Origin: Candidatus Firestoneibacteriota bacterium
Lineage (GTDB): Bacteria; Oederibacteriota; D2-FULL-39-29; JBBTED01
DNA: 51,808 nt
Direction: 5' to 3'
Assembly (NCBI GenBank): GCA_038042445.1
Contig: JBBTED010000163.1
Span: 1-51,808, forward strand
Below are positions 18,116-34,053 of the stretch, one piece after another (position 1 is the first letter of the stretch; every line of letters begins with the position of its first letter). The notes under the pieces were generated by a model that saw only the letters and a program-made list of their open reading frames with translations, did no database searches and had not been told where the DNA came from. Made by a program: the position numbers and the translations under genes.

Positions 18116-18146
18116 ATCAGACGTTGGTGGTTGAAAAGTAGTTTTG

Positions 18147-18214: not shown

Positions 18215-18230
18215 TTAGTAAAATAGGAAA

Positions 18231-20909
18231 ATGAAAAGTTTAAAACGAAAAATGAAAAACTATAAATTGAATGTAGTCGCAGGCTTTAGCCTGCGGTATT
18301 ATCTTTTACCATTTTTCCGCAGGCTAAAGCCTGCGACTACTATTTTAATATTCCTATTTTTAACTTCAACACTTTCCGCTGCGGATTGGAGAACATTCAA
18401 AAAAAATCCTGCACGTGTTGGGGAAGCAATAGAGCAGGCGCATCCACCTCTAACTTTGAAATGGCAGTTTACTGCTCAAGGCGCATTCCTTTCTTCGCCT
18501 ATAGTATATAAAGGTAGAGTCTACATAGGTAGTGAGGGAGGAGATGTTTTTGCTTTTGATGCATATACAGGAGCTATGGTATGGCAATATTCAACAGATG
18601 GTCCGGTTAGAGGGACACCATCTGCGGCGAATGGTATTATTTATGTATCTTGTCAGGATGGATATTTGTATGCATTTGATGCTAATACTGGAGACATTAA
18701 ATGGAAATATTTAACAGGAAGCAAAGATTGTTCTTCGCCTGTTGTTGAGAATGTTAAATTGTATGGGGCAAGTGGTTTTCCACAACAAGCTGTTTATTGT
18801 CTCAATGCAAGTACAGGAGCTGAGTTATGGAAAGTATCTTTAGATAAATATATTTATTCTTCACCTGTATATAAAGATGGTATTGTTTATGTTGGAGCTA
18901 ATAATGGAAAATTTTATGCATTAGATGCTAATACTGGAAGTATTAAGTGGTCATTTACCACAGAAGGTAGTATATATTTTTCTACAATGGCACTTGCAAA
19001 TGGAGTTGTTTATGGGGCACCTGGAAGTGATGATAGAAAAGTTTACGCACTAAATGCAAATGCTACAGGTGGTTTAAAAACTGGATGGAGTTTCACTGAC
19101 CTTGGAACAGCTCCAACAATTGTTTCTTCAATTGCAATATCAAACGGATTTTTATATATAGCAAGTGGAACAACGCCTTTTACTCTTTATAAATTAGATG
19201 CAGGCACAGGTGTAAAAATGGCAGAACGGGAAATTGGTATAAATTCCAATTTAGGATTTGCTTCTTCCCCTGCAATTTCAAATGGTGTTATATATATTGG
19301 AGCAGCAAATTCTATTTTTTATGCACTTGATGCAGGGACACTTGATATTCTTGGACAAATTACACTTGATGCACCTATTCTTTCAACAGCATCAATTTCC
19401 AATGGGTGGGTATATATTGGCACAGGTGATTTAGGTGATGGAACAATTTATGGTTTTGAATGTGCAAAAGCAGCAGCAATTACAAGTCCTGATGATGAAA
19501 CAGGCTCGGAAAATATTGTAGGTACAGTATTGGATATAAAAGGAATCGTTAAAAATCCTGATATAAAAAATTATAAACTCGAGTATAAATCAGAAGGTTT
19601 AAATGAATGGAATCTTTTTGCCACAGGAACAGGTGAGATAAATAATGCTATTCTTGGAACTTTATCTACATATAATATTCCACAAGGTAATGTTGATATA
19701 AAACTTACAGTAGAAGAATTAAGCGGAAGAATTCTGAATAATTTTGCTATGTTTCGTATTTATTTGGCTCAGACTTTTGCTATGATTCGCAAATGGGTGA
19801 CTGCAATATTAGGGGCAGTGATTACTGCTTATGATGGAACTGAGCTTACAATTGAGCCAGGTACTTTAAAACAAGATACTTATGTTACTATAAAAACCCC
19901 TATAGAGTATCCTGAAATGCTTGTGTCTACGAAATTCAAGCCAAGTCCTGTTGTCCGAGAATTTTTGATAGATATTGAAGATAAAACTTTTAATAAACCT
20001 GTTACTATTAAGATTCCATTTAAAGATGCAGATTTTGATATTAAAAAAGTTAAAAAAGAGAATTTAAAAATGTTCTATTATAATGAGAAGGATAAAAATT
20101 GGGAATTTATTTCGGATTCTTATGCTATAGCATCTCAAAATCTTGTTGTAGGCAAGGTAACGCATTTTTCAATGTTTGGAGTTTTTGGAGTTGCAAGTTC
20201 TTATGCCCAAGGTATAATTACTGTTGCTTTAGGTGGTACTTTAATGGCTGCAGATGGAACAACAGCTATATTTGAGCCTGGAGCTCTAACTGATGATGAT
20301 ACAGTAACTATTCAGGAACCACTTTCTTATTCAAATGATGGTATATCCAAATTTTATAAAAGCACAACTGTTACAAGAGAATTTTTAGTAACAAAACCAA
20401 GAAATTCCAAATTTAACAAACAAGTTACAATAAAATTGCCTTATACAGATGAAGAAATTCAGGGAATGAAAGAGAAAAATTTAAGAATATGCTGGTGGAA
20501 TTCTGAAAAATCTAAATGGCAGATGCTAAATTCATCTAAGCCGTCAATTGAAGAAAAAAAAGTTGTTGGAAAAGTTACACATTTTTCAATTTACAGGATT
20601 TTTGAATATTTGGGTGGTGAAGATCTTATAAATAAAGATACAGTTTATACATATCCAAATCCTGCTTTGGGAGACACTTTGGTTTTTAAATGTTATTTAG
20701 GTGATGATGCAGATATAACCATAGATGTATTTAATATAGCCGGAGAAAAGATAGCCATTTTGAACAATACAGGTATAGCAGGTGTAACTTTGGAAACCAC
20801 ATGGGATATAAACAATATCGCAAGCGGAGTATACATATATAAAATAGAAGCAACAGCTAAAAGCGGAGCAAAAAAATATGTCATTAAAAAACTCGCAATC
20901 GTCCATTGA
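18231..20909 (+). CDS. Secreted protein: PQQ/BamB-like beta-propeller, Ig-like linker, two ZU5-like domains ending in THFS, and a T9SS type-A-like C-terminal sorting domain
   Basis: Signal h-region ILIFLFLTSTLSA; W.TF..NPAR.G propeller start and repeated SSP..VY.G..G..YA.DA.TG...W blades; two copies of DGT....EPG.L..D..VTI...F.K.VTIK.P...W...GKVTHFS; C-terminal YPNP...WD...ASGVYIYKI...KKLAIVH. Confidence 0.85.
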   Translation: MKSLKRKMKNYKLNVVAGFSLRYYLLPFFRRLKPATTILIFLFLTSTLSAADWRTFKKNPARVGEAIEQAHPPLTLKWQFTAQGAFLSSPIVYKGRVYIGSEGGDVFAFDAYTGAMVWQYSTDGPVRGTPSAANGIIYVSCQDGYLYAFDANTGDIKWKYLTGSKDCSSPVVENVKLYGASGFPQQAVYCLNASTGAELWKVSLDKYIYSSPVYKDGIVYVGANNGKFYALDANTGSIKWSFTTEGSIYFSTMALANGVVYGAPGSDDRKVYALNANATGGLKTGWSFTDLGTAPTIVSSIAISNGFLYIASGTTPFTLYKLDAGTGVKMAEREIGINSNLGFASSPAISNGVIYIGAANSIFYALDAGTLDILGQITLDAPILSTASISNGWVYIGTGDLGDGTIYGFECAKAAAITSPDDETGSENIVGTVLDIKGIVKNPDIKNYKLEYKSEGLNEWNLFATGTGEINNAILGTLSTYNIPQGNVDIKLTVEELSGRILNNFAMFRIYLAQTFAMIRKWVTAILGAVITAYDGTELTIEPGTLKQDTYVTIKTPIEYPEMLVSTKFKPSPVVREFLIDIEDKTFNKPVTIKIPFKDADFDIKKVKKENLKMFYYNEKDKNWEFISDSYAIASQNLVVGKVTHFSMFGVFGVASSYAQGIITVALGGTLMAADGTTAIFEPGALTDDDTVTIQEPLSYSNDGISKFYKSTTVTREFLVTKPRNSKFNKQVTIKLPYTDEEIQGMKEKNLRICWWNSEKSKWQMLNSSKPSIEEKKVVGKVTHFSIYRIFEYLGGEDLINKDTVYTYPNPALGDTLVFKCYLGDDADITIDVFNIAGEKIAILNNTGIAGVTLETTWDINNIASGVYIYKIEATAKSGAKKYVIKKLAIVH
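18273..18340. repeat. GTAG-type REP doublet (inverted pair), in-frame in the signal peptide of the 892-aa gene
   Basis: GTAGTCGCAGGCTTTAGCCTGCG at 18273-18295 and its exact reverse complement at 18318-18340; translated as VVAGFSLR...RRLKPAT. Confidence 0.95.
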
Positions 20910-21423
20910 TAAATATGTAAAAATTCCCACTTTTGTAAAGGGGGATAAAGGGGGATTTGTAGCCGCAGGCTTTAGCCTGCGAAAGCATAAATCCATAGGT
21001 ATTTTTTTGATAACTATTTTTCTATTTGGCTGTGCTCCCCAAAAAGATATTATTAAACAAGATGTAGTTGCCGATTTATCGGCAATCAAAGAACCAGTAT
21101 ACATCACTGCAAGAGGAGTTGGTTCTCCATCTTTTGATTTACAAAAGATTCAGGAGAGAAGAATGTCTGCTAATAGGTCGTCTATATCTGCTGCAGTGTA
21201 TCAATTGATAAGTTTTCTCAAAGGATTGAGGTTAGAGAATGGTCAGATAGTAGGTAGTGCAATGGATGCAGATACAAAGTTTAAAGAAGTAGTAGAAAAT
21301 GCTGTTAAGGAATTATACGAAGTAGTAACACAGGATTTTACTACAACTGAAACATGTAGCAGTACTATTAGATTAGACAAAAACAAACTTGAAGATAAAC
21401 TAAAGGTAAAATTCAATGAATGA
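20878..21423 (+). CDS. Lipoprotein, LPP20-like (start codon uncertain)
   Basis: Lipobox IFLFG-C (Cys at 21031) after a hydrophobic stretch; ITARGVG.P...A.R.....A..QL...LKG pattern reminiscent of LPP20. Confidence 0.7.
   Translation: MSLKNSQSSIDKYVKIPTFVKGDKGGFVAAGFSLRKHKSIGIFLITIFLFGCAPQKDIIKQDVVADLSAIKEPVYITARGVGSPSFDLQKIQERRMSANRSSISAAVYQLISFLKGLRLENGQIVGSAMDADTKFKEVVENAVKELYEVVTQDFTTTETCSSTIRLDKNKLEDKLKVKFNE
20925..20981. repeat. Adjacent CCCCCTTT-type and GTAG-type palindromes, in-frame in the lipoprotein N-terminus
   Basis: TCCCACTTTTGTAAAGGGGGATAAAGGGGGATTT (20925-20958), then GTAGCCGCAGGCTTTAGCCTGCG (20959-20981). Confidence 0.9.
21064..21085. repeat. GTAG-type palindrome variant, in-frame (VVADLSA)
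   Basis: GTAG-TTGCCGAT-TT-ATCGGCAA; near-identical copy at 23341. Confidence 0.85.
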
Positions 21424-23041
21424 GTTATTTGTCATTCCCGCGAAAGCGGGAATCCAGTATTTTAGGGATAAAATTATGAATTTAAATTGTAGTGATCGAC
21501 AGTTGTCATTGCGAGTAGTTGTAGAGGTAGTCGCAGGCTTTAGCCTGCGGTCTTTCCTTCGCAAGCTAAAGCTTGCGGCTACAATTATGATATTTATATT
21601 TGCTATTTTTAACACCTGCTATTCCTCAGAAATTCATCCGAATGCAGGCACTACAAGTGCGTCTTTTCTTAAAATAGGCATAGGTGCAAGACCTGTAGGA
21701 ATGGGTGAAGCTTTTGTTGCAGTTGCAGATGATGCTAATTCAGTATACTGGAATCCTGCAGGTTTGGCTCGTGTTAAAAAAATGGAATTTACTGCAATGC
21801 ATAACGAATGGTTTCAGGATATAAGATATGAATTTATTGCTTATGCTCATCCTTTTGAAAATGGTTCAACTGGAGCTTTCCATTTAGGAAGTTTGTATTT
21901 AAAAGGTTTGGAAAGGCGAAGCTGGTTAACAGAAGATCCTGAAGATGATCCTAGTTTAGCAGAAGATTTATTTGGCGCAGCAGATTATGAAGGGGCAATT
22001 TCTTATAGTGGTTGGTTAACAGAAAATCTAATGGGAGGAGCAAATTTAAAATTTATTTATGAAACTATAGATAAATACAATGCTTCTGGTTTTGCATTTG
22101 ATTTGGGTTTAATTTATAAAATAGCAGGAGATAATTTAACTTCAGGACTTGTTCTGCAAAATTTAGGGCCAAAATTAACATTTATCCAAAGAGGGTATAT
22201 GTTGCCTTTAACAGCAAAATTAGGATTTGCATGGAAAATTCCTCTTCTTAATTTGTTATGGGCTATAGATTTGAAACAACCAATAGATAATTATCTTCAT
22301 ATAAATTCAGGTTTGGAATACTGGTTTATGAATACAATTGCATTAAGAGTTGGATATAGATACAAATGGTTTGGAAATGACTTAGGAACATTATCAGGGT
22401 TGACATCCGGTATGGGTTTTCAGGTGAATAATTTATTTGGTACGTTAGATATGGAATTAGATTATGCTTTTGTTCCCTATGGAGATTTAGGTTTCACGCA
22501 TAGGGTTTCATTAACAGCAAGATTTGGAACTTCTGTTGAATTACCAGAGTCTGAACCAGTTAAAGGAAAAACTGCTGATGAATTAAAACAGGAAATAATA
22601 TCAGAAGTAGATTCAAAAATAGCTGTAGCTGCAGAGCTTGCTCTGCAAAATAGTGATAATATTTCTAATAATTTAAATAAAATAAATACAGACATAACTA
22701 CAATTTCAGATAATATGAAAGTAATAATGGAAAAACTTAACACTCTTGATGAAAAACAGAAGGCTCAAGTTCTTAAAGATGAAGCAAAACAGGAAATAAA
22801 TACAGAAAAGGATGAAGCGAATAAGTTGCCTGAAAATATTAATATGCCATCAGACAATATAAAGCAAGAAACAAAATATGAAACATACGAAGTGCAACAA
22901 GGTGATAACCTGCATACTATTGCAAAAAAATTCTATGGCACTTCGGCAAAGTGGAATATTGTATATGAAGCAAATAAAGATACAATGAAAACACCAGATA
23001 ACATTAAAATCGGTAATAAACTAAAAATCCCCAAAGAATGA
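21416..23041 (+). CDS. PorV/PorQ-family outer-membrane beta-barrel fused to a coiled coil and a C-terminal LysM domain (true start may be downstream, e.g. 21476)
   Basis: FLKIGIGARPVGMGEAFVAVADDANSVYWNPAGLA N-terminal motif; DYAFVPYGDLGFTHRVSL barrel end; LysM YEVQQGDNLHTIAKKFYG...NIKIGNKLKIP. Confidence 0.88.
   Translation: MNELFVIPAKAGIQYFRDKIMNLNCSDRQLSLRVVVEVVAGFSLRSFLRKLKLAATIMIFIFAIFNTCYSSEIHPNAGTTSASFLKIGIGARPVGMGEAFVAVADDANSVYWNPAGLARVKKMEFTAMHNEWFQDIRYEFIAYAHPFENGSTGAFHLGSLYLKGLERRSWLTEDPEDDPSLAEDLFGAADYEGAISYSGWLTENLMGGANLKFIYETIDKYNASGFAFDLGLIYKIAGDNLTSGLVLQNLGPKLTFIQRGYMLPLTAKLGFAWKIPLLNLLWAIDLKQPIDNYLHINSGLEYWFMNTIALRVGYRYKWFGNDLGTLSGLTSGMGFQVNNLFGTLDMELDYAFVPYGDLGFTHRVSLTARFGTSVELPESEPVKGKTADELKQEIISEVDSKIAVAAELALQNSDNISNNLNKINTDITTISDNMKVIMEKLNTLDEKQKAQVLKDEAKQEINTEKDEANKLPENINMPSDNIKQETKYETYEVQQGDNLHTIAKKFYGTSAKWNIVYEANKDTMKTPDNIKIGNKLKIPKE
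21430..21457. repeat. TGTCAT-type palindrome with ATTCCC-N8-GGGAAT core
   Basis: TGTCATTCCCGCGAAAGCGGGAATCCAG; relatives at 42659-42733 and a degenerate one at 36072. Confidence 0.88.
21527..21582. repeat. GTAG-type REP doublet in-frame before the PorV-like signal h-region
   Basis: GTAGTCGCAGGCTTTAGCCTGCG...CGCAAGCTAAAGCTTGCGGCTAC. Confidence 0.93.
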
Positions 23042-25563
23042 TACGACCAACAACTATTTTTGCTTTTATTGTAATTTTCACTTCCTTTTTGTTTTATCTT
23101 TTTACTATATCACCTACTGTTGTAGTAGGTGATAGTGGTGAGTTAATTACAGCAGTCCATTCTTTGGGTATAGCACATCCACCTGGCTATCCTGTTTTTT
23201 GTATTTTAGGAAAAATATTCACTTTTTTGCCAGTTGGAACTATTGCCTTTCGCGTTAATCTAATGAGTGCATTTTTTAGTTCAATATCTTTACTGTTTAT
23301 ATATTTGATTTTGTTGAAAATATGGGGGCACAGTAAAGTTGTAGTTGCCGATTTATCGGTAAAAAATGAATCTAATGTTAATCCTGTATTTCTTTCTGCT
23401 TCTATGGCTCTTTGTTTTGCATTCACAAACACCTTTTGGTCGCAAGCATTAATGTCAGAAGTTTATGCCTTAAATACATTTTTTTTATCCGTTTTAATTT
23501 ATATTTTAGTTCTCTGGTATGAAAAGCTGCAAAACCAGATTTCCGACAATAAATTGTTATATTTATTTTCTTTTATATATGGAGTAAGTCTTGCGAATCA
23601 TAATACTATGGTTCTATTTGGGCCTATTGCTTATGGCTGGATAATTTTGTGTACACCTGATATTTTAAAGAAGAAAAACGTGTTAATATTATTGTTGGCA
23701 CTAATTTTTCTTGGATTAACAACTTATTTTTATATGCCTATACGTGCTTTAACTTCACCTGCAATAAATTGGGGAAATCCTGATACTTTAACACGTTTCA
23801 TTGATCAAATTACACGAAGGCAATATGGAGATCTTGCTAAAGATCCAAGGGCATTGGCGTTGTTTGGAAGACAGATATTGGAATATTTAAAACTATTAAT
23901 CAAGCAAATTTCTCCATTCCTGACTATTTTTTCTGTAATAGGAATATGGTACTTTTACAAAATTAACAGAAAATATTTTGTTCTAACACTTGCACTTTTT
24001 TTAGGTTTAAGTTTGGGTTTTATACTTTTGCTCAATTTTCAGCTGACTACTGAGACTATTCTTTCAGTGGCAGAGTTTTTTACAGCATCTTATGTTATTG
24101 CTATTATATGGTTATGTTTTGGATTCAAATTTATTCTTGAAAGGCTATATCCCAAAAAACAACTTTTTTATATGACTTATGGAATTATTTTTTTAATCCC
24201 AATTCTTTCACTTAAATTGAATTACTTTGAAAATGATCTAAGCAGGAAATATATAGCTTATGACTATAATATAAGTGTTATGAAATCAATGCCTAAAAAT
24301 TCAATGCTCCTTGGTATGGGCGATAATATAATATTTCCTTTATCATATCTTCAAAAAGTTGAAAAAAACAGGCAAGATTTAAAAATTTATGATGATATAG
24401 GTTGTGTATTTGAAAATATTTATGGTGAGGATTTTTTGAAATTTCCAGAAGATTATAAGAAGCAAAAAAGAACTGAAATACAGAAACTTTTGATAAAAAA
24501 TTCACAAAATCCGGTATATTGTGTTTTAGGAAGTAATTTGTCTAATATCACAGGAATATCTTTGACTCCGGAAGGTTTAGTTTGTAAAACACTCCCAAAA
24601 AACACAATAAATTCAGACAAAGATGATATTGTCAATATGGATTTTCAATCAGGGAAAGGAAAGTTGATTGCTATACCTGTTAATCAATCTGTTAACCGTA
24701 AGAAAAATGTAGACACTAAATTTGATTGGTCAAAAATCTATATACGTGGGATAGATGATGATACAGTCTATAAGGATTATTTGAATAGAGATTTAATTGC
24801 CCAATACCATTTTTTTTATGCAGAGCATTTGTTTTTTAAAAATGATATAAAAAATGCAAAAGAGGAATACAACAAATCATTTAAAGTGGCACAGGATATA
24901 GAGTGGATAAAAAATAATATTATGGTTACATTAAATGTCAGGGGTTTGTCAGATGAAGTGGAAAAAATTGCAACTGAATCAGTAAAAATTGATTCTAATA
25001 ATGCCCAGATATATGTTAATTTAGGAATATCTTTTTATAATAAAGGTGTTTTGGATAAAGCAATTGAATCATATAAAAAAGCAATTGAAATAGATTCTAA
25101 ATGTGTTGAAGCACATTCAAATTTAGGTGTGGTTTATGAAAAGATGGGGTTAACAAATGATGCAATCAATGAATACAAAATTACAATTGAACTTGAGTCT
25201 AACCATATAATTGCACGTCATAACCTTGGGGTTTTATATAAAAAAGAAGGTAAATATATAGAAGCAATTAATGAATTTGAAAAGGTGATAAAGATTAATC
25301 CTGATTTAACTGAAGCATATATATCGCTGGGAATTTCGTATGGAAAATTAAACCAGTATGAAAATGCTATAAAGGTATTTAAAAAAATAATAGAAAAAGA
25401 TGATTCAAATGCAGAGGCACATTATAACCTTGGAGTTGCATATTACAAAATAGGAGTTCTAAAAGATGCCAAGCAAGAGTGGGAAAAAACTTTAAGTATA
25501 AATCCAAATTATCCCTTAGTAAAAGAACATTTAGCTCACATTTTCGGCAACACTAAAAATTAA
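23038..25563 (+). CDS. DUF2723/TMEM260-like multi-pass GT-C glycosyltransferase with C-terminal TPR repeats
   Basis: PTV..GDSGEL......GIAHPPGYP motif, WSQA...EVY.L, many TM helices, and about six TPRs (A..NLG..Y...G....AI..Y.K.I). ATGA overlap with the upstream gene. Confidence 0.9.
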   Translation: MIRPTTIFAFIVIFTSFLFYLFTISPTVVVGDSGELITAVHSLGIAHPPGYPVFCILGKIFTFLPVGTIAFRVNLMSAFFSSISLLFIYLILLKIWGHSKVVVADLSVKNESNVNPVFLSASMALCFAFTNTFWSQALMSEVYALNTFFLSVLIYILVLWYEKLQNQISDNKLLYLFSFIYGVSLANHNTMVLFGPIAYGWIILCTPDILKKKNVLILLLALIFLGLTTYFYMPIRALTSPAINWGNPDTLTRFIDQITRRQYGDLAKDPRALALFGRQILEYLKLLIKQISPFLTIFSVIGIWYFYKINRKYFVLTLALFLGLSLGFILLLNFQLTTETILSVAEFFTASYVIAIIWLCFGFKFILERLYPKKQLFYMTYGIIFLIPILSLKLNYFENDLSRKYIAYDYNISVMKSMPKNSMLLGMGDNIIFPLSYLQKVEKNRQDLKIYDDIGCVFENIYGEDFLKFPEDYKKQKRTEIQKLLIKNSQNPVYCVLGSNLSNITGISLTPEGLVCKTLPKNTINSDKDDIVNMDFQSGKGKLIAIPVNQSVNRKKNVDTKFDWSKIYIRGIDDDTVYKDYLNRDLIAQYHFFYAEHLFFKNDIKNAKEEYNKSFKVAQDIEWIKNNIMVTLNVRGLSDEVEKIATESVKIDSNNAQIYVNLGISFYNKGVLDKAIESYKKAIEIDSKCVEAHSNLGVVYEKMGLTNDAINEYKITIELESNHIIARHNLGVLYKKEGKYIEAINEFEKVIKINPDLTEAYISLGISYGKLNQYENAIKVFKKIIEKDDSNAEAHYNLGVAYYKIGVLKDAKQEWEKTLSINPNYPLVKEHLAHIFGNTKN
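23341..23362. repeat. GTAG-type palindrome variant in-frame in an inter-helix loop (VVADLSV)
   Basis: GTAGTTGCCGATTTATCGGTAA, 21/22 identical to 21064-21085. Confidence 0.85.
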
Positions 25564-25568
25564 ACAAA

Positions 25569-25615: not shown

Positions 25616-25629
25616 AAAAAGAGTTTCAG

Positions 25630-26891: not shown

Positions 26892-26894
26892 GTT

Positions 26895-26922
26895 TTGACA
26901 AACCAACAAAATTCTGTATAAT
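26895..26922 (+). promoter_or_regulatory. Sigma70-type promoter
   Basis: TTGACA (26895-26900), 16-bp spacer, TATAAT (26917-26922); the ATG follows 10 nt later with no SD. Confidence 0.8.
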
Positions 26923-26932
26923 TATATAAACA

Positions 26933-27307
26933 ATGAATAAAATACTGGTTGTAGATGACGAAGTAGATATAGCAGAGGTTTTAGCTGCTTTTTTGATTAA
27001 AGAAGGTTATGATGTAGTTACTGCTTATGATGGTAATACTGCCTTACAGAAATTTTCAGAAGTTAATCCATCTTTAATTTTATTGGATATACAATTACCT
27101 GACATAAATGGTATAGAAGTATTAGGAAAAATTAAAGGAATAAATAAAGACATAAATGTAATTATGATAACTGCATTTAGAGATGCAGATAAAGTTGTTG
27201 AAGCATTTCGCCTTGGTGCTTATGATTGTATATTTAAACCTTTTGATTTTAACTATCTAAAAAATGCAGTTCTGGCTGTAATAGGTAAAGCAGATTTATG
27301 TAAGTAG
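26933..27307 (+). CDS. Single-domain response regulator (CheY-like receiver)
   Basis: ILVVDDE, LLDIQLP phosphoacceptor, MITA and FKPF motifs. Confidence 0.95.
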   Translation: MNKILVVDDEVDIAEVLAAFLIKEGYDVVTAYDGNTALQKFSEVNPSLILLDIQLPDINGIEVLGKIKGINKDINVIMITAFRDADKVVEAFRLGAYDCIFKPFDFNYLKNAVLAVIGKADLCK

Positions 27308-27327
27308 CGGTTGGATTACTATCCAAC
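27304..27327. repeat. GTAG-type palindrome whose TAG is the regulator's stop codon
   Basis: GTAGCG-GTTGGAT-TACT-ATCCAAC; same GTAGCGGT start as 34100. Confidence 0.7.
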
Positions 27328-27357
27328 TAAAAGAAATGGTGTAAACACAAATAAAAA

Positions 27358-28500
27358 ATGCGGATAGCAGATATTTTAAAAAACAAAAGTTCTGTGACCG
27401 ACGGGAATACTGGAAGTGCGACCAAAGAGAATGTTGTAATCACAAAACCTACTGAAGAAGTAGATAATGATAAAATGACGCGAAACGTCATTCCTGAAAC
27501 ATCTCAAAAATTCCAAATAGATAATATTATAGCCAAAAATACCACTATTCAGATTCCTAAAGAAGTAAAAGTTGAAACTGCAGATCCAATAGAAGCATAT
27601 ACATCTTTGACAAATTGGATTAAAAACATTTTGTTTAATATGACTGATTATTCTGTGTTGCATGAGGATATGATTATAGAAGTTTTAAATAAACTTGTTA
27701 AACTTAATTCAGGAAAATTACTTCTTATTGTGAATAAATCTACAACACATAATTATTTAATAGGACATTCGGCAAATGTTTGTATATTAGCACTTAAATT
27801 TGGAAGAGAATTGAATTATGATCAGGATAAATTATTGAAATTGGGAGCTGTAGCACTTTTGCATGATATTGGAATGTTTAAGATGTTAGATATTGTGAAT
27901 AAACCAGGTAAATTATCTGCTGAAGAATATACAGAAATTAAAAAACACGCTTTACTCGGGAAAAATATTGTTGAAAATATTGATATTACTGAAAATTTTA
28001 AAAAGGTGTTAATTCCTGTAGTTTTTCAGCATCATGAACGTAAAAATGGTAAAGGATATCCTTCTGGTGTGAAAGAAATATCTGAATTTGCTAAAATTAT
28101 AAGTCTTATTGATATATATGAGGCATTGACACATTATAGGCCATATAGAGAAAGACTTTTGCCGCATAATGCACTGAAATTTTTAATTGAACAGTGCAAT
28201 GAATTTGATACGGATTTGATTAAAATTTTAATCAAGGCAATGTCATTATTCCCACCAGGAAGTTTTATTAAATTAAATACAGGTGAAATTGCCAAAGTTG
28301 TATCAGTGCATTCGGAATTTCCAACACGTCCGGTTGTGGAATTATTTATGGATAGCCAAAGCAATATTCTATCTGAAAAGAAAATAATTGATTTATCTGC
28401 AACACCAATGGTACATATAAGTGAAGCTATTGATGAATTAAAATTAAAAGTTAGTAAAGAAGTAGCGTTTAAGCTAAAAAGCCAGCTGTATTGGATATAG
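27358..28500 (+). CDS. HD-GYP domain protein (putative cyclic-dinucleotide phosphodiesterase)
   Basis: HSANV, LLHDIG, HHERKNGKGYP, DIYEAL and RPYR motifs. Confidence 0.92.
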   Translation: MRIADILKNKSSVTDGNTGSATKENVVITKPTEEVDNDKMTRNVIPETSQKFQIDNIIAKNTTIQIPKEVKVETADPIEAYTSLTNWIKNILFNMTDYSVLHEDMIIEVLNKLVKLNSGKLLLIVNKSTTHNYLIGHSANVCILALKFGRELNYDQDKLLKLGAVALLHDIGMFKMLDIVNKPGKLSAEEYTEIKKHALLGKNIVENIDITENFKKVLIPVVFQHHERKNGKGYPSGVKEISEFAKIISLIDIYEALTHYRPYRERLLPHNALKFLIEQCNEFDTDLIKILIKAMSLFPPGSFIKLNTGEIAKVVSVHSEFPTRPVVELFMDSQSNILSEKKIIDLSATPMVHISEAIDELKLKVSKEVAFKLKSQLYWI

Positions 28501-28502
28501 AA

Positions 28503-28546
28503 AATTTCCATAACCCCCTTTATTAAAGGGGGATTAAGGGGGAATT
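28503..28546. repeat. CCCCCTTT-type palindrome, intergenic
   Basis: CCCCCTTT-ATT-AAAGGGGGATTAAGGGGGAATT. Confidence 0.9.
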
Positions 28547-28569
28547 ATTTTCGTAGGAGGTGGGGAAAA

Positions 28570-28746
28570 ATGCGTAAACTTGCAATAGTGGCACTAATAT
28601 TAGCATCTTTAAGTTTTGTAATAGGTGGTATTTCACGTGTTATTATAGCGGCTCCAATAGTTGTTGAATCCAGAGTGTATGCCGGGTTCACAGTTATAGC
28701 TTTGCTTTTTGCAATTGCGTTATTGTTGTTAGAACAGAAAAAATAA
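28570..28746 (+). CDS. Small two-TM membrane protein, 58 aa (not in the ORF track)
   Basis: AGGAGGTG SD at 28555-28562; MRKLAIVALILASLSFVIGGISRVIIAAPIVVESRVYAGFTVIALLFAIALLLLEQKK then TAA. Confidence 0.85.
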   Translation: MRKLAIVALILASLSFVIGGISRVIIAAPIVVESRVYAGFTVIALLFAIALLLLEQKK

Positions 28747-28778
28747 TATACTAAATTATCAGTTGCGAGTTTTTGTGG

Positions 28779-28847
28779 GTAGTCGCAAGCTTTAGCTTGC
28801 GGTATTGTTTTTTACCATTTTTTCCGCAGGCTAAAGCCTGCGACTAC
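28779..28847. repeat. GTAG-type REP doublet, intergenic
   Basis: Arms at 28779-28801 and 28825-28847; the spacer GTATTGTTTTTTACCATTTTTTC resembles that of the 18273 copy. Confidence 0.95.
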
Positions 28848-28889
28848 CTTTATGGCACAAGCTCTAAGGCGGATGTATAACAAATAATT

Positions 28890-29684
28890 ATGTACGAAGA
28901 ATACTGGAAATTAAAAGAAAAACCATTTGAGAATACTCCTGATCCAAGATTTTTATACTTATCTTCTCAGCATGAAGAGGGGTTTTCACGGCTTCTTTAT
29001 GTTATTAAAGAGAACAAGGGTGCTGGTATGCTTACAGGGTTATTTGGATGTGGCAAAACTCTTTTGGGAAGGGCTTTGCTTTCAGAATTACCTAAAGATT
29101 TGTATAAAATTGCATTTGTTACAAATCCAAGGTTGTCTGATGTAGATCTTTTACGTATGATAGTGTTTCAATTGGGAAAAGAAGAATCACTTTCAGGTAA
29201 GACAAATATTTTAGTTGCTTTAGAAAAACTGCTTAAAGATAATTTTAGAGATGGAAGAAAAACACTTGTAATAATTGATGAAGCTCATAGTATAGAAGAT
29301 TCAAATATCTTTGAAGAAATACGGCTTCTTCTTAATTTTCAGATGAATGATAAATTTTTATTAACATTGCTTTTATTAGGACAGCCGGAATTAAGAGAAA
29401 AAGTGGAATTATCAAAACAACTTGAGCAAAGAATGGCAATGAAATATCATCTTGAAGGTTTATCAAAAACAGATACGATAAATTATATAAACCATAGATT
29501 AAAAGTTGCAGGCGGAGAACATATTAATTGGACAGAAACTGCATCTATTATGATTTATGAACGTTCTGGTGGTATTCCAAGAAGGATTAATCAAATATGT
29601 GATACGGCATTATTAGTTGGATATGGTCATAAAGCTGATAAAATTGATGAAAATATAATTAAAGAAGTATTAGATACTTTATAA
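28890..29684 (+). CDS. ExeA/GspA-like AAA ATPase
   Basis: MYEEYW.L.EKPF..TPDP.F.Y N-terminus, Walker A GLFGCGKT, Walker B IIDEAH, L.GQPEL, GGIPR.IN. Confidence 0.92.
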   Translation: MYEEYWKLKEKPFENTPDPRFLYLSSQHEEGFSRLLYVIKENKGAGMLTGLFGCGKTLLGRALLSELPKDLYKIAFVTNPRLSDVDLLRMIVFQLGKEESLSGKTNILVALEKLLKDNFRDGRKTLVIIDEAHSIEDSNIFEEIRLLLNFQMNDKFLLTLLLLGQPELREKVELSKQLEQRMAMKYHLEGLSKTDTINYINHRLKVAGGEHINWTETASIMIYERSGGIPRRINQICDTALLVGYGHKADKIDENIIKEVLDTL

Positions 29685-29713
29685 TGACAAAAAAATGTGG
29701 AGGAGATATACTT

Positions 29714-29923
29714 ATGGAAAAAGAAATAATATTTCTTATTGAAGAATCATTGGATGGTGGATATGAAGCAAAAGCAATGGGCTATTCTGTTTTTACTGAG
29801 GCAGAAACTTTAGAAGAATTAAAAGAAGCAATTAAAGATGCAGTAAAATGTCATTTTGAAGAAAAAGATGTTCCTCATATTATTAGACTTCATTTTGTTA
29901 AAGATGAAGTAATGGTAGCATGA
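29714..29923 (+). CDS. hicB: Short HicB-like antitoxin
   Basis: GGAGGAG SD at 29699-29705 favours the ATG at 29714; EES.DGGY.A......FTEAETLEEL...I.DAV.CHF pattern; ATGA-coupled to a HicA-like gene. Confidence 0.75.
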   Translation: MEKEIIFLIEESLDGGYEAKAMGYSVFTEAETLEELKEAIKDAVKCHFEEKDVPHIIRLHFVKDEVMVA

Positions 29924-30168
29924 GACTGCCAAGAGATATTTCTTGTGAAGAATTAGTGAAAATAGTTTGTAAAAAATATGGATATCAAATTACTAGGAAA
30001 ACTGGTAGTCATCTTAGATTAACTACGTTTTTAAAAGGAGAACATCATATTACTATTCCAAAACATCGTTTTTTGAAAATAGGAACTTTAAACACTATTT
30101 TGTTGGATATTGCAAAATATTTAAAAGTAGACAAACAGAATCTGATAGATAATTTATTTGATGAGTAA
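29920..30168 (+). CDS. hicA: HicA-family toxin (mRNA interferase)
   Basis: GY...R..GSH.RL......HITIP.H..LKIGTL..IL. Confidence 0.88.
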   Translation: MRLPRDISCEELVKIVCKKYGYQITRKTGSHLRLTTFLKGEHHITIPKHRFLKIGTLNTILLDIAKYLKVDKQNLIDNLFDE

Positions 30169-30198
30169 AAAGCACTATTAAAGAGAGGTAAATGTACA

Positions 30199-30810
30199 AT
30201 GAATATTTTGGCAATTGGTTCGCATCCTGATGATATAGAGTATGGATGTGGTGGTACACTATTAAAATTTAAAGAAGAAGGTCATAAAATAAATATGCTT
30301 ATTATGACAAAGGGTGATGTTGGTGGGACTCCTAAAACTAGGTCAAAAGAACAAATATTATCAGCACGAATTTTAGATGCGAAAATTTACTGGGGTGGTT
30401 TAAAAGACACAAGAATTGTGGTAGATAGAAAGACTATAGGAATAATTGAAAAAACAATTGCACTTGTTAAACCGTATATAGTGTTTACACATTACCATAA
30501 TGATACACATCAGGATCATAGACATATTTCACAAGCTACAATGGTTGCAACACGCCATATGAGAAATGTGCTTTTTTATGAAGTTCCGACAACTATGGAA
30601 TTTTTACCTACGGTATTTGTAAAAATAGATAAACTACTGGATCGGAAATTGAAGTTATTGCATTCTCATGAGTCTCAGGTTTATGCGATGAAGATACCAG
30701 GATTAAATATATTGGAGAATGTGAAGTCCTGCGCAATTTTTCGTGGATTTCAGGATAGAGTCCGATTTGCAGAAGGTTTTATGCCTTTGCGACTTTCACT
30801 TAAATTATGA
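30199..30810 (+). CDS. PIG-L/LmbE family deacetylase
   Basis: HPDD.E.G.GG and HQDH motifs; GAGG SD upstream. Confidence 0.93.
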   Translation: MNILAIGSHPDDIEYGCGGTLLKFKEEGHKINMLIMTKGDVGGTPKTRSKEQILSARILDAKIYWGGLKDTRIVVDRKTIGIIEKTIALVKPYIVFTHYHNDTHQDHRHISQATMVATRHMRNVLFYEVPTTMEFLPTVFVKIDKLLDRKLKLLHSHESQVYAMKIPGLNILENVKSCAIFRGFQDRVRFAEGFMPLRLSLKL

Positions 30811-31910
30811 GTATCAAATATATTATTTTAATTATACTTATAATATTTTTTATTCAGCCAACAGGTGGAACGTGGTTTTATTTGTACCAAATTCGTTGGC
30901 TATATGTTCTAATTCTTTCGTTTTTACTTGCGTATGTATTTACTCCTGTTGTAGGAAAAATTGCAGAAAAATATAAATTTCTTGATTATCCTAATGAGCG
31001 TAAAATGCATAAAAATCCAATACCAAGAATAGGCGGTATTGCAATATTTGCTGCGATTTTAATTGCTGGAGTTAGAAATCTGCATTTTCCGCTACCAATA
31101 ATTGGGATTTTTATTGGGCTCACTATTATATTTCTTATAGGATTTTTTGACGATATAAAAGGTTTGTCAGCCAAAACAAAACTTTTGGGTCAGATTTTAG
31201 CTGCTTTAGTTCTTATAAAATTTGGTGTTACGATAAGTTTTATTCCTGAAATTCCATTTGAGCGAACAATTGAAGTTCTGATAACTATAATATGGGTTAT
31301 AGGTATTACTAATGCAATAAATTTTCTTGATGGAATGGATGGGCTTTGTAGTGGTTTAGGTATAATCAGTGCAATGTGTTTTTTTGTAATTGCCTGGCCA
31401 ACAAGGCAAAGTGATCTTGGATATTTTACAATTGCATTAGTGGGAAGTTTATTGGGATTTCTTCCATATAATTTAAAACCAGCTAAAATATTTCTTGGTG
31501 ATTCAGGAAGTACTTTGATAGGATTTAGTCTTGCAAGCATAGCTATACTGGGAACCTGGGCACATAAAGATACTGTTAAAGCTCTGAGTATTCCAATTTT
31601 GATACTTGGAATACCGATATTTGATATGATATATACAACTATTTCAAGAATAAAAAATGGGACAGTTAAAACAATTAAAGGGTGGCTGGAATATGTAGGA
31701 AAAGACCATTTTCATCATAGATTACATAAAATGGGTTTTAATGTTACAGGAGCTATAGCAATGATATTTGGTTTAAATCTTTGCTTGGGATTAGGCGCAA
31801 TTGTATTAAGAGAAACTTCTAAACAAGGGGCTATGTTGTTATTCATACAAGCATTTATAATATTTCTAATAATAACTGCATTGATGCTTCATGGGAGAGA
31901 AATAGAGTGA
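30807..31910 (+). CDS. wecA: WecA/TagO-like undecaprenyl-phosphate GlcNAc-1-P transferase (MraY family)
   Basis: RK.H..PIPR.GG, GFFDD, NAINFLDGMDGL, FLGDSGS and HFHH motifs; multiple TM helices. Confidence 0.88.
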   Translation: MSIKYIILIILIIFFIQPTGGTWFYLYQIRWLYVLILSFLLAYVFTPVVGKIAEKYKFLDYPNERKMHKNPIPRIGGIAIFAAILIAGVRNLHFPLPIIGIFIGLTIIFLIGFFDDIKGLSAKTKLLGQILAALVLIKFGVTISFIPEIPFERTIEVLITIIWVIGITNAINFLDGMDGLCSGLGIISAMCFFVIAWPTRQSDLGYFTIALVGSLLGFLPYNLKPAKIFLGDSGSTLIGFSLASIAILGTWAHKDTVKALSIPILILGIPIFDMIYTTISRIKNGTVKTIKGWLEYVGKDHFHHRLHKMGFNVTGAIAMIFGLNLCLGLGAIVLRETSKQGAMLLFIQAFIIFLIITALMLHGREIE

Positions 31911-32575
31911 TTGAAGCTTTTCTTAATGATAGTTTAATATGGGTAGGTGGTATAATTATTTTTATAATAATTTTAATAATTTTTTTACGTTCAAAATCAG
32001 ATGTTGTTATTTTTCATGAAACACAAGGACAGCAGGAAAAGGTAAATATTGTTGAAGGTACAAATAATACTGTAGAAATAGAAACTCGAGTAGATGAATC
32101 TCTACAAAAACATACACAAGAGAAAATATCAAACAATTATGCAGAAGATTTAACACGAATGGCAGAAGAAATAAATAGAATAGAAGAATTATATCTGAAT
32201 AATTTGTCTAAACTTGAGAATGAATTAAAAAAAGAAATAAAAGGCTTAAATAGTAGTATTTCTAAAACAGACAATAATGCGATACATAAGGAAATAAGTA
32301 ATTTATCTGCACGTATTGATAAAATAGAAAAAGTAGAAGCTTTTGTAGAAGCCTCTTTAGAGGCGAAAGATGATGGGAAAGATGATACAATTTCTACAAT
32401 CAATTCATTAAAACAGATGTTTGCAGGTATAGAAACCAGAATTACAAATATTGAAAACAAAAAGCCTGATATGGTAGAATCAGCTCAACCATCTTCTAAG
32501 TTACAGGAAGAAGTAAAATCGCTTCAGGAAAAAATAAATGAAGTAATTGCATATTTGAGGTCACTAACATCATGA
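31907..32575 (+). CDS. Hypothetical protein: N-terminal TM anchor plus coiled coil
   Basis: One hydrophobic helix followed by charged heptad-like sequence; GTGA/ATGA overlaps on both sides. Confidence 0.75.
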   Translation: MIEAFLNDSLIWVGGIIIFIIILIIFLRSKSDVVIFHETQGQQEKVNIVEGTNNTVEIETRVDESLQKHTQEKISNNYAEDLTRMAEEINRIEELYLNNLSKLENELKKEIKGLNSSISKTDNNAIHKEISNLSARIDKIEKVEAFVEASLEAKDDGKDDTISTINSLKQMFAGIETRITNIENKKPDMVESAQPSSKLQEEVKSLQEKINEVIAYLRSLTS

Positions 32576-34053
32576 ATATAATTTTAAATAGAGTTGTTAA
32601 ATATTTTGGGTTTTATGTAGGGCAAGGCTTTAGCCTTGCTAATGCAAACTTATTACAATATTTTAAATATTCAGTTTTATTATTAGCTGTATTTTTGAAT
32701 CTATTTGTAGTTCAGTATAGTTATGCTGAAACAATAGGAAATGTTGATCATGTGTTGGTTTCCAATAAAGAGGATTTAGCTAAAATAAGTGTTTCAATTT
32801 CACAAATAACTTCTTATAAGCATTTAATACTTGAAAATCCATTAAGAATTGTTCTGGATATTCAAAATGCAATGGATAGTTTAATTGCAAAAGCAAAGGA
32901 TATATCTCTTAAAATTGGTCCTGTGCAAAGTGTTCAGACAATGCAATTTGCAATGGAGCCTGTTAAGATAGTCAGAGTTATACTAAATATACGGGAAACA
33001 GAGATAAATAATAAAGAGGCTCTTTCTTACAAAGTTGATAATGAATCAAATGAAATAGTAATTTCAGTGACCAAAGTGAATAGTGCAACCATAGGACAGG
33101 CGTCTCGCCTGTCAATAAGTGAGATTTCGGAGGAGACCAAAGTTTCATCAGTGGAAGAGACTATAGGGTCATCAGGGGTTGAAAAATCCAAAGAGAAAGC
33201 TGTGGTTTCGCCAGAGAATGAATATATAGTAGATATAGGGGATCTTTTAAATATTGCAGTATATCCAGGAGAAGAGTTTAACAAAGAGACAGTTGTTAAT
33301 ACAGATGGTAAAATAACTATGTTAATGGTTGGAGATATTTTGGCTAAAGGCAGAAAAGTTTCTGAATTAACAGAGGATATAACAAAAAGAATTAGCAAAT
33401 ATGTATCTTCTCCTAAAGTTTCAGTTTCAGTGCGAAAATTTGGATATCGTAAGATTTATCTTACTGGAGAAGTAAGAGCTTCTGGTGCTTATGATTTCAG
33501 GGATGGACAAAAATTAACAGAATTTGTAACAGGTTCCGGTGGATTTACAGCAAAAGCAGATTTGAAAAACGTTAAGATTTATAGAGGTGAGCCAGACAAA
33601 CGTGAGATCATAAATGTTAATGTTGAAGAGATGATGAAAAATGGTGATTTCAAGAAAGATATAATCTTGCAAACCGGAGATATTATTGATGTGCCAAAAG
33701 GTGTAAAAGAAGTTTTCATAATTGGTCAGGTAAAATCTACAGGAACTTATGAACACAGAGTAGGTTTAAAAATGCTTGAGCTTATTTCCAAGGCAGGTGG
33801 TTTTACGGATATAGCAGATATAAGCAGTATTAGAGTATTCAGAGGTCTTGAAGAAAAAAAAGAAGTTCTTGAGGTTGATATGGCAAAGGTTATGAAAGAT
33901 GGTCAGCTTGATAAAGATATATTTCTTCAGCCTGGAGATATAATTTTTGTACCCTCCGGTAGTATCACAACATGGAATTGGATAATAAGTAGTATTGTTC
34001 CAACAATGTCTTTTATTGTTTCACTTGTAACTTTAATATATATAGTTAAATAG
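32572..34053 (+). CDS. wza: Wza-like polysaccharide export protein with AMIN domain and two SLBB domains
   Basis: AMIN-like LENPLRIVLDI; EY....GD.L.I.V...V..DG.I; two GEV/GQV...G.Y....GGFT..AD SLBB units; C-terminal hydrophobic helix. Confidence 0.85.
   Translation: MNIILNRVVKYFGFYVGQGFSLANANLLQYFKYSVLLLAVFLNLFVVQYSYAETIGNVDHVLVSNKEDLAKISVSISQITSYKHLILENPLRIVLDIQNAMDSLIAKAKDISLKIGPVQSVQTMQFAMEPVKIVRVILNIRETEINNKEALSYKVDNESNEIVISVTKVNSATIGQASRLSISEISEETKVSSVEETIGSSGVEKSKEKAVVSPENEYIVDIGDLLNIAVYPGEEFNKETVVNTDGKITMLMVGDILAKGRKVSELTEDITKRISKYVSSPKVSVSVRKFGYRKIYLTGEVRASGAYDFRDGQKLTEFVTGSGGFTAKADLKNVKIYRGEPDKREIINVNVEEMMKNGDFKKDIILQTGDIIDVPKGVKEVFIIGQVKSTGTYEHRVGLKMLELISKAGGFTDIADISSIRVFRGLEEKKEVLEVDMAKVMKDGQLDKDIFLQPGDIIFVPSGSITTWNWIISSIVPTMSFIVSLVTLIYIVK
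32617..32639. repeat. GTAG-type palindrome in-frame in the Wza signal region (VGQGFSLA)
   Basis: GTAGG-GCAAGGCT-TT-AGCCTTGC. Confidence 0.88.
33091..33113. repeat. ATAG-variant palindrome in-frame in the Wza AMIN-to-export-domain linker (IGQASRLS)
   Basis: ATAG-GACAGGCG-TCT-CGCCTGTC; same architecture as 18093. Confidence 0.75.

Follow-up and report, generated by a model that had tools for sequence, protein, structure and literature searches.

What are short palindromes doing within the coding sequence of genes for exported proteins? The window analysed here is a contig of 51,808 nucleotides from an uncultured groundwater bacterium, a candidate-phylum member with a 2.8-Mb genome of 32% G+C. 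Four genes of the window carry such a palindrome near their 5′ end; they encode an 892-aa protein, a 181-aa lipoprotein, a PorV-like protein and a Wza-like protein. Our reading, to which we assign a probability of about 0.7, is that the palindromes are REPs tolerated in the disposable n-regions of the signal peptides of envelope proteins, as survivors of in-gene landing.

Table 1. REP units and REPINs in the window.
Feature	Position	Strand	Remarks
REPIN-type inverted pair	18273..18340	+	892-aa gene; arm A 18273-18295, spacer, arm B 18318-18340
Single REP unit (GTAGCC + GCAGGCTTTAGCCTGC + G)	20959..20981	+	181-aa ORF; in frame VAAGFSLR
Sister-family unit GTAGTTGCCGATTTATCGGCA	21064..21085	+	read VVADLSAI, mature part of the 181-aa ORF
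REPIN-type inverted pair	21527..21582	+	PorV-like gene; arms of GCAGGC (A) and GCAAGC (B) type
TGCCGA-family unit	23341..23362	+	read VVADLSVK, loop of 841-aa membrane protein (23038-25563)
Intergenic REPIN, CGCAGGC family	28779..28847	.	ORF end at 28746 on one side, ORF start at 28890 on the other
REP unit, subfamily GTAGG + GCAAGGCTTTAGCCTTGC	32617..32639	+	read VGQGFSLA, Wza n-region
Intergenic single unit	36100..36122	+	between convergent genes 34139-36055 (+) and 36159-36821 (-)
REPIN	40408..40462	.	between minus-strand genes 38950-40398 and 40446-41705; longest ORF of the second gene overlapped at its 3′ end

These palindromes belong to the GTAG-tagged REPs: they occur as units and as REPIN-type inverted doublets, and several sister families of them are present in the genome. 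Each unit has a GTAG head, a G+C-rich stem of 7-8 bp and a TTTA loop, with the consensus (G)GTAGYC-GCAGGCTTTAGCCTGC-G (166 units). The core motif is matched 17 times on both strands of the window (10 units), compared to 0.14 matches expected from shuffles. Across the genome, the 166 units of this CGCAGGC family group into 107 elements on many contigs, 58 of them inverted '+-' pairs. Intergenic DNA is the ordinary location of the family: 84 of the 107 elements are intergenic, 9 overlap the end of an ORF and 14 are found within the longest ORFs. Copies are near-perfect. Counting all families, we found 556 GTAG hairpins in the genome compared to 59 in a reversed-genome control; 455 have perfect stems and fall into 117 sequence types. 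Thus the elements resemble known GTAG REPs and REPINs in their GTAG-ended, short (20-40 bp) and G+C-rich palindrome, in their hundreds of dispersed and mainly extragenic copies and in their frequent inverted doublets, which can fold as one longer hairpin. Rfam gave no match at gathering score on either strand of positions 17900-33200.

GTAG-tagged REPs and RAYT transposases are reportedly the subject of work by Nunvar in 2010, and REP doublets (REPINs) and RAYTs are said to have been treated by Bertels and Rainey in 2011. The present genome contains five Y1_Tnp genes. For all five the best NCBIfam match is the REP-associated tyrosine transposase (NF047646), with one of the five above the cut-off, and each of these RAYT-like genes is bordered by its own palindrome family, a further likeness to the GTAG REPs and RAYTs, as is the presence of several families per genome. 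None of the five is bordered by the CGCAGGC family in this assembly, which is 90% complete; this differs from known GTAG REPs, as does the host, an uncultured member of a candidate phylum with 32% G+C. The family is patchily expanded among relatives (124 units in the present genome, G000, 52 in G005 and 0-6 in 39 others). Together with the near-identity of the copies, this patchiness would be an indirect sign of mobilisation by a RAYT.

In the 892-aa gene (18231 or 18252 to 20909; PQQ-propeller and Por_Secre_tail Pfam domains), the n-region MKSLKRKMKNYKLN is followed by an inverted pair read in frame as VVAGFSLRYYLLPFFRRLKPATT (VVAGFSLR..RRLKPATT) and then by the h-region ILIFLFLTSTLSA. The public gene call (885 aa, start at ATG 18252) includes the element. 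The second pair is read as VVAGFSLRSFLRKLKLAAT (VVAGFSLR..RKLKLAAT) and abuts the h-region IMIFIFAIFNTCYS of a 541-aa PorV/UPF0164-like protein with LysM (21416-23041). Immediately past this element, ATG 21587 encodes the second h-region residue; one of the two public calls (541 and 484 aa) begins there.

The two remaining genes carry single units. That of the lipoprotein ORF (20878-21423) lies 4 residues ahead of the h-region and lipobox KHKSIGIFLITIFLFGC, the lipobox being LFGC by inspection. Ribosome sites of the organism are of the GGAGG type, and ATG 20878 has GGAG 9 nt upstream; the sole later candidate start is a TTG within the h-region, where the shorter of the two public calls (181 and 138 aa) starts. 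No homologue of this ORF was found anywhere. The Wza-like protein (493 aa, also in the public call; 32572-34053; Poly_export, SLBB and AMIN) starts at ATG 32572 with GAGGT 10 nt upstream. Its unit is not a decayed copy, being a member of the sister subfamily GCAAGGCTTTAGCCTTGC, which has 16 perfect copies in the genome. We found no orthologue of the N-terminal 215 residues of Wza.

As the preliminary description had proposed, the palindromes lie in frame in the n-regions of four exported proteins, between a plausible start and the hydrophobic core and in the only stop-free frame. With the element, the n-regions measure 30-50 residues, and the h-regions are visible by inspection. Two further points of that description hold: the element provides basic residues beside the h-region in two cases, namely the inverted pairs (RRLK, RKLK), and inspection of the 892-aa gene finds no ATG, GTG or TTG from the element to the cleavage site. 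Our own start predictor chooses the upstream ATG in four of four genes. Assembly artefact does not explain the elements: two of them, the lipoprotein unit and the PorV-like pair, are spanned with zero differences by contigs of a run from another study.

Alignment with orthologues reveals the N-terminal insertion that had been expected. The element is absent from four orthologues of the 892-aa protein in same-class genomes; those in G002, G003 and G006 have short, ordinary signal peptides (for example MMNKKIVNIMLAGFFLTALLSAADF), and that in G001 has a longer n-region. In G000, the N-terminus consists of MKNYKLN, 23 residues and ILIFLFLTSTLSAADW, and MKNYKLN aligns with the n-region of the orthologues. 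The predicted cleavage site, between SAA and DW, is conserved in the orthologues as xAA followed by DF. Because the orthologues lack the 23 residues yet keep the cleavage site, the element is very probably translated within a long n-region, at least in this gene. Four same-class orthologues of the PorV-like protein also have no element, with n-regions of 10-15 residues. Likewise, a TolC-like protein encoded on another contig carries an element in G000 that is absent from its orthologues, which have short, ordinary signal peptides. These alignments indicate that the elements in the 892-aa, PorV-like and TolC-like genes are lineage-specific in-frame insertions. Orthologue identity is only 39-51%, so that no true empty site is seen.

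Coding copies are also enriched in signal peptides across the genome, as had been anticipated. By our own crude gene calls, coding sequence contains 33 of the 266 TTTA-loop elements, the other 233 being outside it. Signal-peptide zones, representing 2.9% of residues, hold 9 of the 33 (p value = 2.8e-7), with starts and zones set by crude rules that count N-terminal membrane anchors too. Leaving out this contig, the figure is 5 of 27 (p value = 1e-3). The first 75 codons hold 11 elements in signal-peptide-like genes compared to 6 in others, for a background of 26% (p value = 8e-4), or 10 versus 6 when counted by gene (p value = 0.002); for TTTA elements, the N-terminal contrast found on the remaining contigs is weak (6 versus 6, p value = 0.064). 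All coding copies use a stop-free frame, such frames making up 16% through pairs and 51% through single units.

Up to 120 nt upstream of starts, 48 of 191 copies (25%; 48 versus 143) are at exported-protein genes, compared to the 26% background. This absence of preference fits retention where the peptide is disposable. None of the 52 units in G005 is within a signal peptide, and about eight are deep in long ORFs; among 80 loci of other phyla, none of 89 units is convincingly within a signal peptide.

Signal peptides are not the sole haven. Many sister-family units are found in frame within mature-protein loops, for example in MurE and a GT-C membrane protein. By eye, two homologous-looking G005 proteins have a CGCAGGC-type unit (SQAKACDY / SQAKVCDY) seemingly in the unit-bearing loop of the 841-aa protein.

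We propose that these REP elements are non-autonomous, their kind being one that is associated with RAYT (Y1) transposases; most copies are intergenic. The minority in genes would survive only if their frame is stop-free and the extra 8-23 residues are harmless. Such an insert may be tolerated in the n-region of Sec and lipoprotein signal peptides, since that region is flexible in length and is removed after export, and the open frame of the reverse arm, encoding RRLK or RKLK, would keep basic residues beside the hydrophobic core. The element of each of the four genes (892-aa, lipoprotein, PorV-like and Wza) would thus be translated within an unusually long signal peptide of about 50-70 residues and then discarded. 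We infer that translation starts at the upstream ATG, that the proteins remain competent for export and that the enrichment stems from selection, not from targeting.

Mis-set starts would place the elements in 5′ untranslated leaders, with the real start downstream at the PorV ATG, the lipoprotein TTG or non-canonical codons; the in-frame reading would then arise incidentally, from the stop-free frames that G+C-rich repeats offer within an A+T-rich genome. Di Nocera et al. 2013 (PMC3733652), in the passages concerned, argue so for most N-terminal REPs. The real start is indeed clearly downstream in other N-terminal cases (e.g., C134:17129, C63:4527 and C15:12293), the public calls of 484 and 138 aa leave the element out, and four G005 units immediately precede the starts of signal-peptide genes. 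Nevertheless we consider this unlikely for the four genes, given that the stretch from element to h-region contains no ATG, GTG or TTG in the 892-aa and Wza genes, that ATG 21587 has no ribosome-binding motif ahead of it, and that MKNYKLN aligns with orthologous n-regions. Starts at ATG 21587 (PorV-like) or at the TTG of the lipoprotein would also leave signal peptides of only 8-14 residues without a basic n-region, whereas the n-regions of orthologues have 10-15 residues with Lys/Arg. Alternatively, the insertion machinery may favour the A+T-rich DNA of the Lys-rich n-region and the Ile/Phe/Leu-rich h-region, with selection playing a minor part. The reverse arm does abut the first h-region codon in six cases, and the 13 coding copies inspected have A+T-rich flanks, mostly with a T ahead of GTAG; intergenic copies too occupy A+T-rich DNA. 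Yet the same 13 copies display neither a target-site duplication nor a common target motif, copies upstream of starts are not commoner at signal-peptide genes, and G005 has none within signal peptides. To our knowledge no mechanism of REP insertion has been established, which also counts against targeting, and we find this account rather improbable.

The preliminary description had joined the idea of a safe haven to that of hairpins tuning translation or export. The haven fits the zone enrichment and the lack of upstream preference; nothing supports the tuning, and we hold it very unlikely that the hairpins are kept for a slowing or attenuation of early translation or transcription, or for a longer signal peptide, that would favour export of these envelope proteins. 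The pairs do form very stable RNA helices 40-110 nt past the start: in the 892-aa gene a 24-bp helix lies 40 nt past the start codon (150-nt stretch, dG -58.7 kcal/mol, z -9.8), and the PorV-like pair folds at -47.6 kcal/mol (z -7.5). REP arms with T-rich h-region codons make up 4 of the 12 terminator-like sites called in the region, and the encoded RRLK retains charge beside the h-region. However, single units give only weak folds (z -2.5 and -2.3), no orthologue has the elements, their near-perfect copies suggest recent arrival, the majority are intergenic, no excess is found upstream of exported-protein genes and G005, with 0 of 52, does not reproduce the pattern. Effects of the hairpins on the mRNA are possibly side effects rather than a function; for example, the 24-bp helix with its terminator-like features could make the genes poorly expressed. 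It is also doubtful that REP/REPIN landing in signal peptides is a general, functional habit across phyla, with the stop-free frame of the reverse arm (RRLKPA[AT]T) as a ready-made basic segment of the n-region and with the 24-bp helix, ahead of U-rich h-region codons about 40-110 nt past the start, as an attenuator or pause site for envelope-protein genes; REPs would on that view be more than tolerated passengers, repeatedly supplying secreted proteins with extended signal peptides and with expression control. Finally, the insertions may have broken the genes, through loss of export or decay, too recently to be purged. That the copies equal the family consensus, that the signal peptides are lengthened to 50-70 residues and that the lipoprotein ORF lacks homologues would agree with such damage. 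It is nonetheless highly improbable: the long ORFs (892, 541 and 493 codons) are unbroken, score positively as coding and encode full domain sets, two insertions are identical in the run from another study, and one would have to suppose that four hits within 15 kb coexist although every one of them is deleterious.

Intragenic GTAG REPs and a mobile repeat within a predicted signal peptide are both already in print, and no new system is revealed here. In the passages concerned, Di Nocera et al. 2013 (PMC3733652) describe intragenic in-frame REPs, of which the NH2 terminus has more than the COOH end; those passages treat most N-terminal copies as probably extragenic and do not mention signal peptides. 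Compared to them, the present analysis adds orthologue backing for three cases and a measure of the excess in signal-peptide zones. Rickettsia palindromic elements (Ogata et al. 2000, cited in the same paper) reportedly lie in frame in protein-coding genes without destroying them, and parts of that paper report that proteins with an N-terminal RPE-1 are expressed. The likeness considered here is one of behaviour, in-frame palindromic coding insertion; the literature searched reported no link between these elements and signal peptides. RPE-1 is much longer than the units described here, and we know of no transposase for it.

A closer parallel in location is the enterobacterial RU-2 repeat, a small mobile palindromic repeat that makes up a portion of a predicted signal peptide. 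According to sections of Delihas 2007 (PMC2759123), it provides the first ~30 residues of the SignalP-predicted signal peptide of YPO1552, homologues of which in other genera have unrelated signal sequences; the author there sees in RU-2 a raw material from which new proteins arise rather than the occupant of a tolerated niche. In those sections RU-2 is a 168-bp MITE-like element at a single locus, not a REP, with no insertion polarity drawn from orthologues and no genome-wide test.

The present locus offers a clean, orthologue-backed example of selfish palindromic DNA filtered by protein tolerance. Loops and termini would be places where intragenic REPs survive, and the discarded part of secreted proteins would hold a disproportionate share. 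Since gene callers differ on the starts, signal peptides may be truncated or missed in the annotations of REP-rich uncultured genomes. Natural signal peptides of 50-70 residues with a 23-residue insert would also form a test set for the tolerance of Sec to n-region length and mRNA structure.

The palindromes of the window are read in frame in the longest ORFs of all four genes named in the preliminary description: those of an 892-aa propeller protein, a 181-aa lipoprotein, a 541-aa PorV-like protein and a 493-aa Wza-like protein. Their core, GCAGGCTTTAGCCTGC, has 17 matches over both strands of the window (10 units), compared to 0.14 in shuffled sequence. By Pfam, the 892-aa protein contains a PQQ-type propeller and Por_Secre_tail, the 541-aa protein UPF0164, PorV (below its cut-off) and LysM, and the 493-aa protein Poly_export, SLBB and AMIN domains, which supports the view that these three proteins are exported.

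Palindromic units in genes of the window
Feature	Position	Reading	Location
Palindrome in 892-aa gene	18273-18340	in frame in longest ORF	
Palindrome in 181-aa lipoprotein ORF	20959-20981	in frame in longest ORF	
Palindrome in 541-aa PorV-like gene	21527-21582	in frame in longest ORF	
Palindrome in 493-aa Wza gene	32617-32639	in frame in longest ORF	
TGCCGA-family unit in 841-aa membrane protein	23341-23362	VVADLSVK	loop after early transmembrane helix

The 181-aa ORF (20878-21423) shows a visible lipobox (LFGC) and matched no Pfam family, and a search of 5.8 billion proteins returned only the window's own protein. It is missing from between the propeller and PorV-like genes of three same-class genomes (G002, G003 and G006), in which these two genes abut. 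With two REP units and a further repeat inside it, this ORF may be a young gene partly made of repeats. Repeats of other palindromic families are packed into the same 5′ regions (18092-18118, 20927-20956, 21431-21457 and 21508-21520), and the longest ORFs read through some of them. They include ATAGGTCAGGCATCTTGCCTGAC, whose family flanks a REP-associated tyrosine transposase (RAYT) gene on contig C59, one repeat read PTFVKGDKGGF, one read VIPAKAGIQ and one of TGTCATTGCGAG type. We also considered the h-region after the element as part of a larger repeat; the 892-aa and PorV-like genes have no more in common there than an A+T-rich identity of 11 nt, which falls in different frames and which we judged to be chance.

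Each unit consists of (G)GTAGYC, GCAGGCTTTAGCCTGC and a final G: behind the GTAG head comes a hairpin with a stem of 7-8 bp and the loop TTTA. The genome assembly (2.81 Mb, 181 contigs, 32% G+C) holds 166 units of this CGCAGGC family (at most two mismatches to the core), grouped into 107 elements, 58 of which are inverted head-out pairs (REPINs). Compared with the 2581 long ORFs of our own gene set, 84 elements fall between genes, 9 run across an ORF end and 14 are ORF-internal. One arm of a pair is often a doubly changed, still self-complementary variant: many pairs genome-wide combine GCAGGC..GCCTGC with GCAAGC..GCTTGC (29 perfect copies of the latter). The two changes compensate each other within the arm, so that each arm can still form a hairpin of its own; the long helix between the arms acquires one G-U pair and one mismatch. 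Several families share the architecture, with 455 perfect-stem GTAG hairpins of 117 sequence types. Allowing one stem mismatch gives 556 hairpins compared to 59 in the reversed genome, 356 of the 556 with a TTTA loop. The Wza copy belongs to a subfamily, GCAAGGCTTTAGCCTTGC, with 16 perfect copies.

Five Y1_Tnp genes are present, and the best NCBIfam match of all five is "REP-associated tyrosine transposase" (above the curated cut-off in one). Every one is flanked by units of its own palindrome family and three also contain them; none of the five is flanked by the CGCAGGC family. The contained units are in frame (C11:20136-20157, C63:24094-24117 and C74:19654-19681), the first reading GRVNPPLR. 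Elsewhere on contig C63 (4660-8772), a RAYT-like ORF runs stop-free through a REP pair of the sister TGCCGA family (VVADSSAK..ADKSATT) and on, with nothing in between, to a giant surface protein's h-region (IILAIILIVPAFCYA); the ORF is 1371 aa long, and no ATG, GTG or TTG separates its transposase domain from that h-region. In their architecture, copy numbers and flanking transposase genes, the palindromes of this genome match the GTAG-tagged REPs, REP doublets/REPINs and REPtrons set out by Di Nocera et al. 2013 (PMC3733652). An Rfam search matched no family.

The strongest evidence that the copies are probably translated comes from comparison with orthologues. The order giant adhesin, propeller protein, PorV-like protein is kept in four same-class genomes (G001, G002, G003 and G006), whose propeller proteins begin with ordinary signal peptides (e.g. 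MMNKKIVNIMLAGFFLTALLSAADF). In the genome under study, the propeller protein reads MKNYKLN, 23 element-encoded residues and ILIFLFLTSTLSAADW. Likewise, 19 element-encoded residues lie immediately N-terminal to IMIFIFAIFNTCYSSEIHPNAG in its PorV-like protein, compared to orthologues such as MLQKNSQLSIKKVTAVLFAAAALALAVEIHPNAG. The alignment proposed earlier as a test of N-terminal insertion thus finds the element missing in the orthologues of both proteins. A TolC-like protein on contig C110 has the same insertion pattern with a REPIN of another family. The comparisons show lineage-specific insertions, the orthologues being 39-51% identical and not true empty sites. For Wza, matches in five related genomes begin at residue 210, past the signal peptide, and a protein search with its N-terminus returned the window's own protein alone. 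The same search with the 892-aa N-terminus gave no closer relative (best 48% identity), and a metagenome scan added one locus at 32% identity. Among Logan contigs of four groundwater runs, none joined across a site without the element; most break at the repeats.

Genome-wide, coding copies are enriched in putative signal-peptide zones, an enrichment that had been proposed for testing. All starts and signal-peptide zones come from our own crude heuristics, a zone running from the start to the end of the first h-region-like segment (670 genes, 2.9% of 850,713 residues). Under the predicted starts, coding sequence takes in 33 of the 266 TTTA-loop elements and leaves out 233; 9 of the 33 lie in such zones (binomial P = 2.8e-7); the share is 5/8 for CGCAGGC-like families and 13/87 for all GTAG hairpins in coding sequence. 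Of the elements in the first 75 codons, 11 belong to genes with signal-peptide-like starts and 6 to others, against a 26% background (P = 8e-4). Counted by gene, the contrast is 10 compared to 6 (P = 0.002), and the six "others" include what is really a further PorV-like protein with a signal peptide. Candidate cases on other contigs are C4:13557, C67:32981, C110:2520, C87:51889 and C105:206. Because the window was chosen for this feature, we repeated the test without its contig, C163. The zones then hold 5 of the 27 TTTA elements in coding sequence (P = 1e-3) and 9 of the 79 coding hairpins overall (P = 5e-4), and the N-terminal contrast falls to 6 compared to 6 for TTTA elements (P = 0.064) and 12 compared to 15 for all hairpins (P = 0.028).

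The best-supported reading, to which we give a probability of about 70%, is a selection filter on REP/REPIN copies. Copies would land chiefly between genes, and gene-internal ones would persist only with a stop-free frame in a dispensable segment, such as the n-region of a cleaved signal peptide. Pairs have no stop-free frame in 25 of 59 cases (one in 12, two in 22), single units have three of six in 45 of 48, and all coding copies use a stop-free frame. In the two inverted pairs the element would supply basic residues beside the h-region, as described before: the reverse arm is read RRLK or RKLK, which would keep the positive charge there.

That the starts are mis-set, with the elements lying upstream of the real ones, we regard as unlikely. 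Several N-terminal copies elsewhere are clearly upstream of the real start. Among the four genes, that for the PorV-like protein encodes its second h-region residue by an ATG, and the sole candidate after the lipoprotein element is a TTG inside the h-region. Inspection confirmed that ATG, GTG and TTG are all missing from the 892-aa gene between element and cleavage site, and from Wza between element and h-region. Ribosome sites in this organism are of the GGAGG type; ATG 20878 (lipoprotein) has GGAG 9 nt upstream and ATG 32572 (Wza) GAGGT 10 nt upstream, ATG 18231 and ATG 21416 have weaker sites and ATG 21587 has none. For each of the four, our start predictor picked the upstream ATG. The element is part of the public call for the 892-aa gene, which begins at ATG 18252 and gives 885 aa, and of the call for Wza. 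For the PorV-like protein there is a public call with it (541 aa) and one without (484 aa), and likewise for the lipoprotein (181 aa with, 138 aa without). The lipoprotein and PorV elements are not assembly artefacts, since contigs from a different study's run span both with zero differences.

Insertion targeted to A+T-rich signal-peptide DNA is rather improbable: in 13 coding copies we saw neither a target-site duplication nor an insertion motif beyond a T that often precedes GTAG, and elements lying up to 120 nt before a start are not biased towards signal-peptide-like genes (48 compared to 143, 25%). Adaptive tuning of translation or export by the hairpins, as suggested earlier, we hold to be very improbable. 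The mRNA of the pair in the 892-aa gene does fold strongly (−58.7 kcal/mol over a 150-nt stretch, z −9.8), as does the PorV-like pair (−47.6 kcal/mol, z −7.5); single units fold weakly, and we see no sign that mRNA structure is selected for. Where a REP arm precedes T-rich h-region codons, a simple terminator pattern is matched; such sites are 4 of the 12 called in this region, compared to 6.2 expected in shuffles. Such helices or terminator-like sites could lower expression. Gene damage is the least probable rival.

Signal peptides are one niche among others for in-frame copies. The TGCCGA family (VVADLSAK) and others occur in frame deep within proteins, the MurE copy in a variable loop. Two homologous-looking proteins of a relative, G005, carry CGCAGGC-family units in another frame (SQAKACDY and SQAKVCDY; loci L199 and L216), by eye in the same loop as the unit of the 841-aa protein; these appear to be independent hits on a single tolerant loop. 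Elements on contigs C87 (51889-51953) and C105 (206-228) come behind the h-region, where cleavage is presumed to occur, and the latter (VAAEQSSA) may itself supply a small-x-small site. Among 40 relatives, the family is expanded in G005 only (52 units; 0-6 in others). Not one of these 52 falls within a signal peptide; four come shortly before the starts of signal-peptide or lipoprotein genes and about eight are deep in long ORFs. The suggestion that signal peptides are a safe haven is supported by the zone enrichment in the genome under study, but not by G005 or by the copies in mature proteins. The exact 23-nt unit GTAGYCGCAGGCTTTAGCCTGCG occurs at at least 80 loci (L036-L115) in MAGs labelled Nitrospirota, Desulfobacterota, Planctomycetota, Omnitrophota, Verrucomicrobiota, Ignavibacteria, Clostridia and others; of the 89 units at those 80 loci, none lies convincingly within a signal peptide. 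The presence of one REP in several phyla is a poor fit for REP-RAYT systems inherited only vertically.

Intragenic GTAG REPs with an excess at NH2 termini are already described in PMC3733652, whose relevant passages regard most N-terminal copies as extragenic and do not mention signal peptides. According to Delihas 2007 (PMC2759123), one enterobacterial MITE-like repeat forms part of a SignalP-predicted signal peptide. Our full-text literature search found no paper testing REP enrichment in signal peptides. To this picture our analysis makes a modest addition: three orthologue-backed cases and a first, crude, quantitative test of enrichment.
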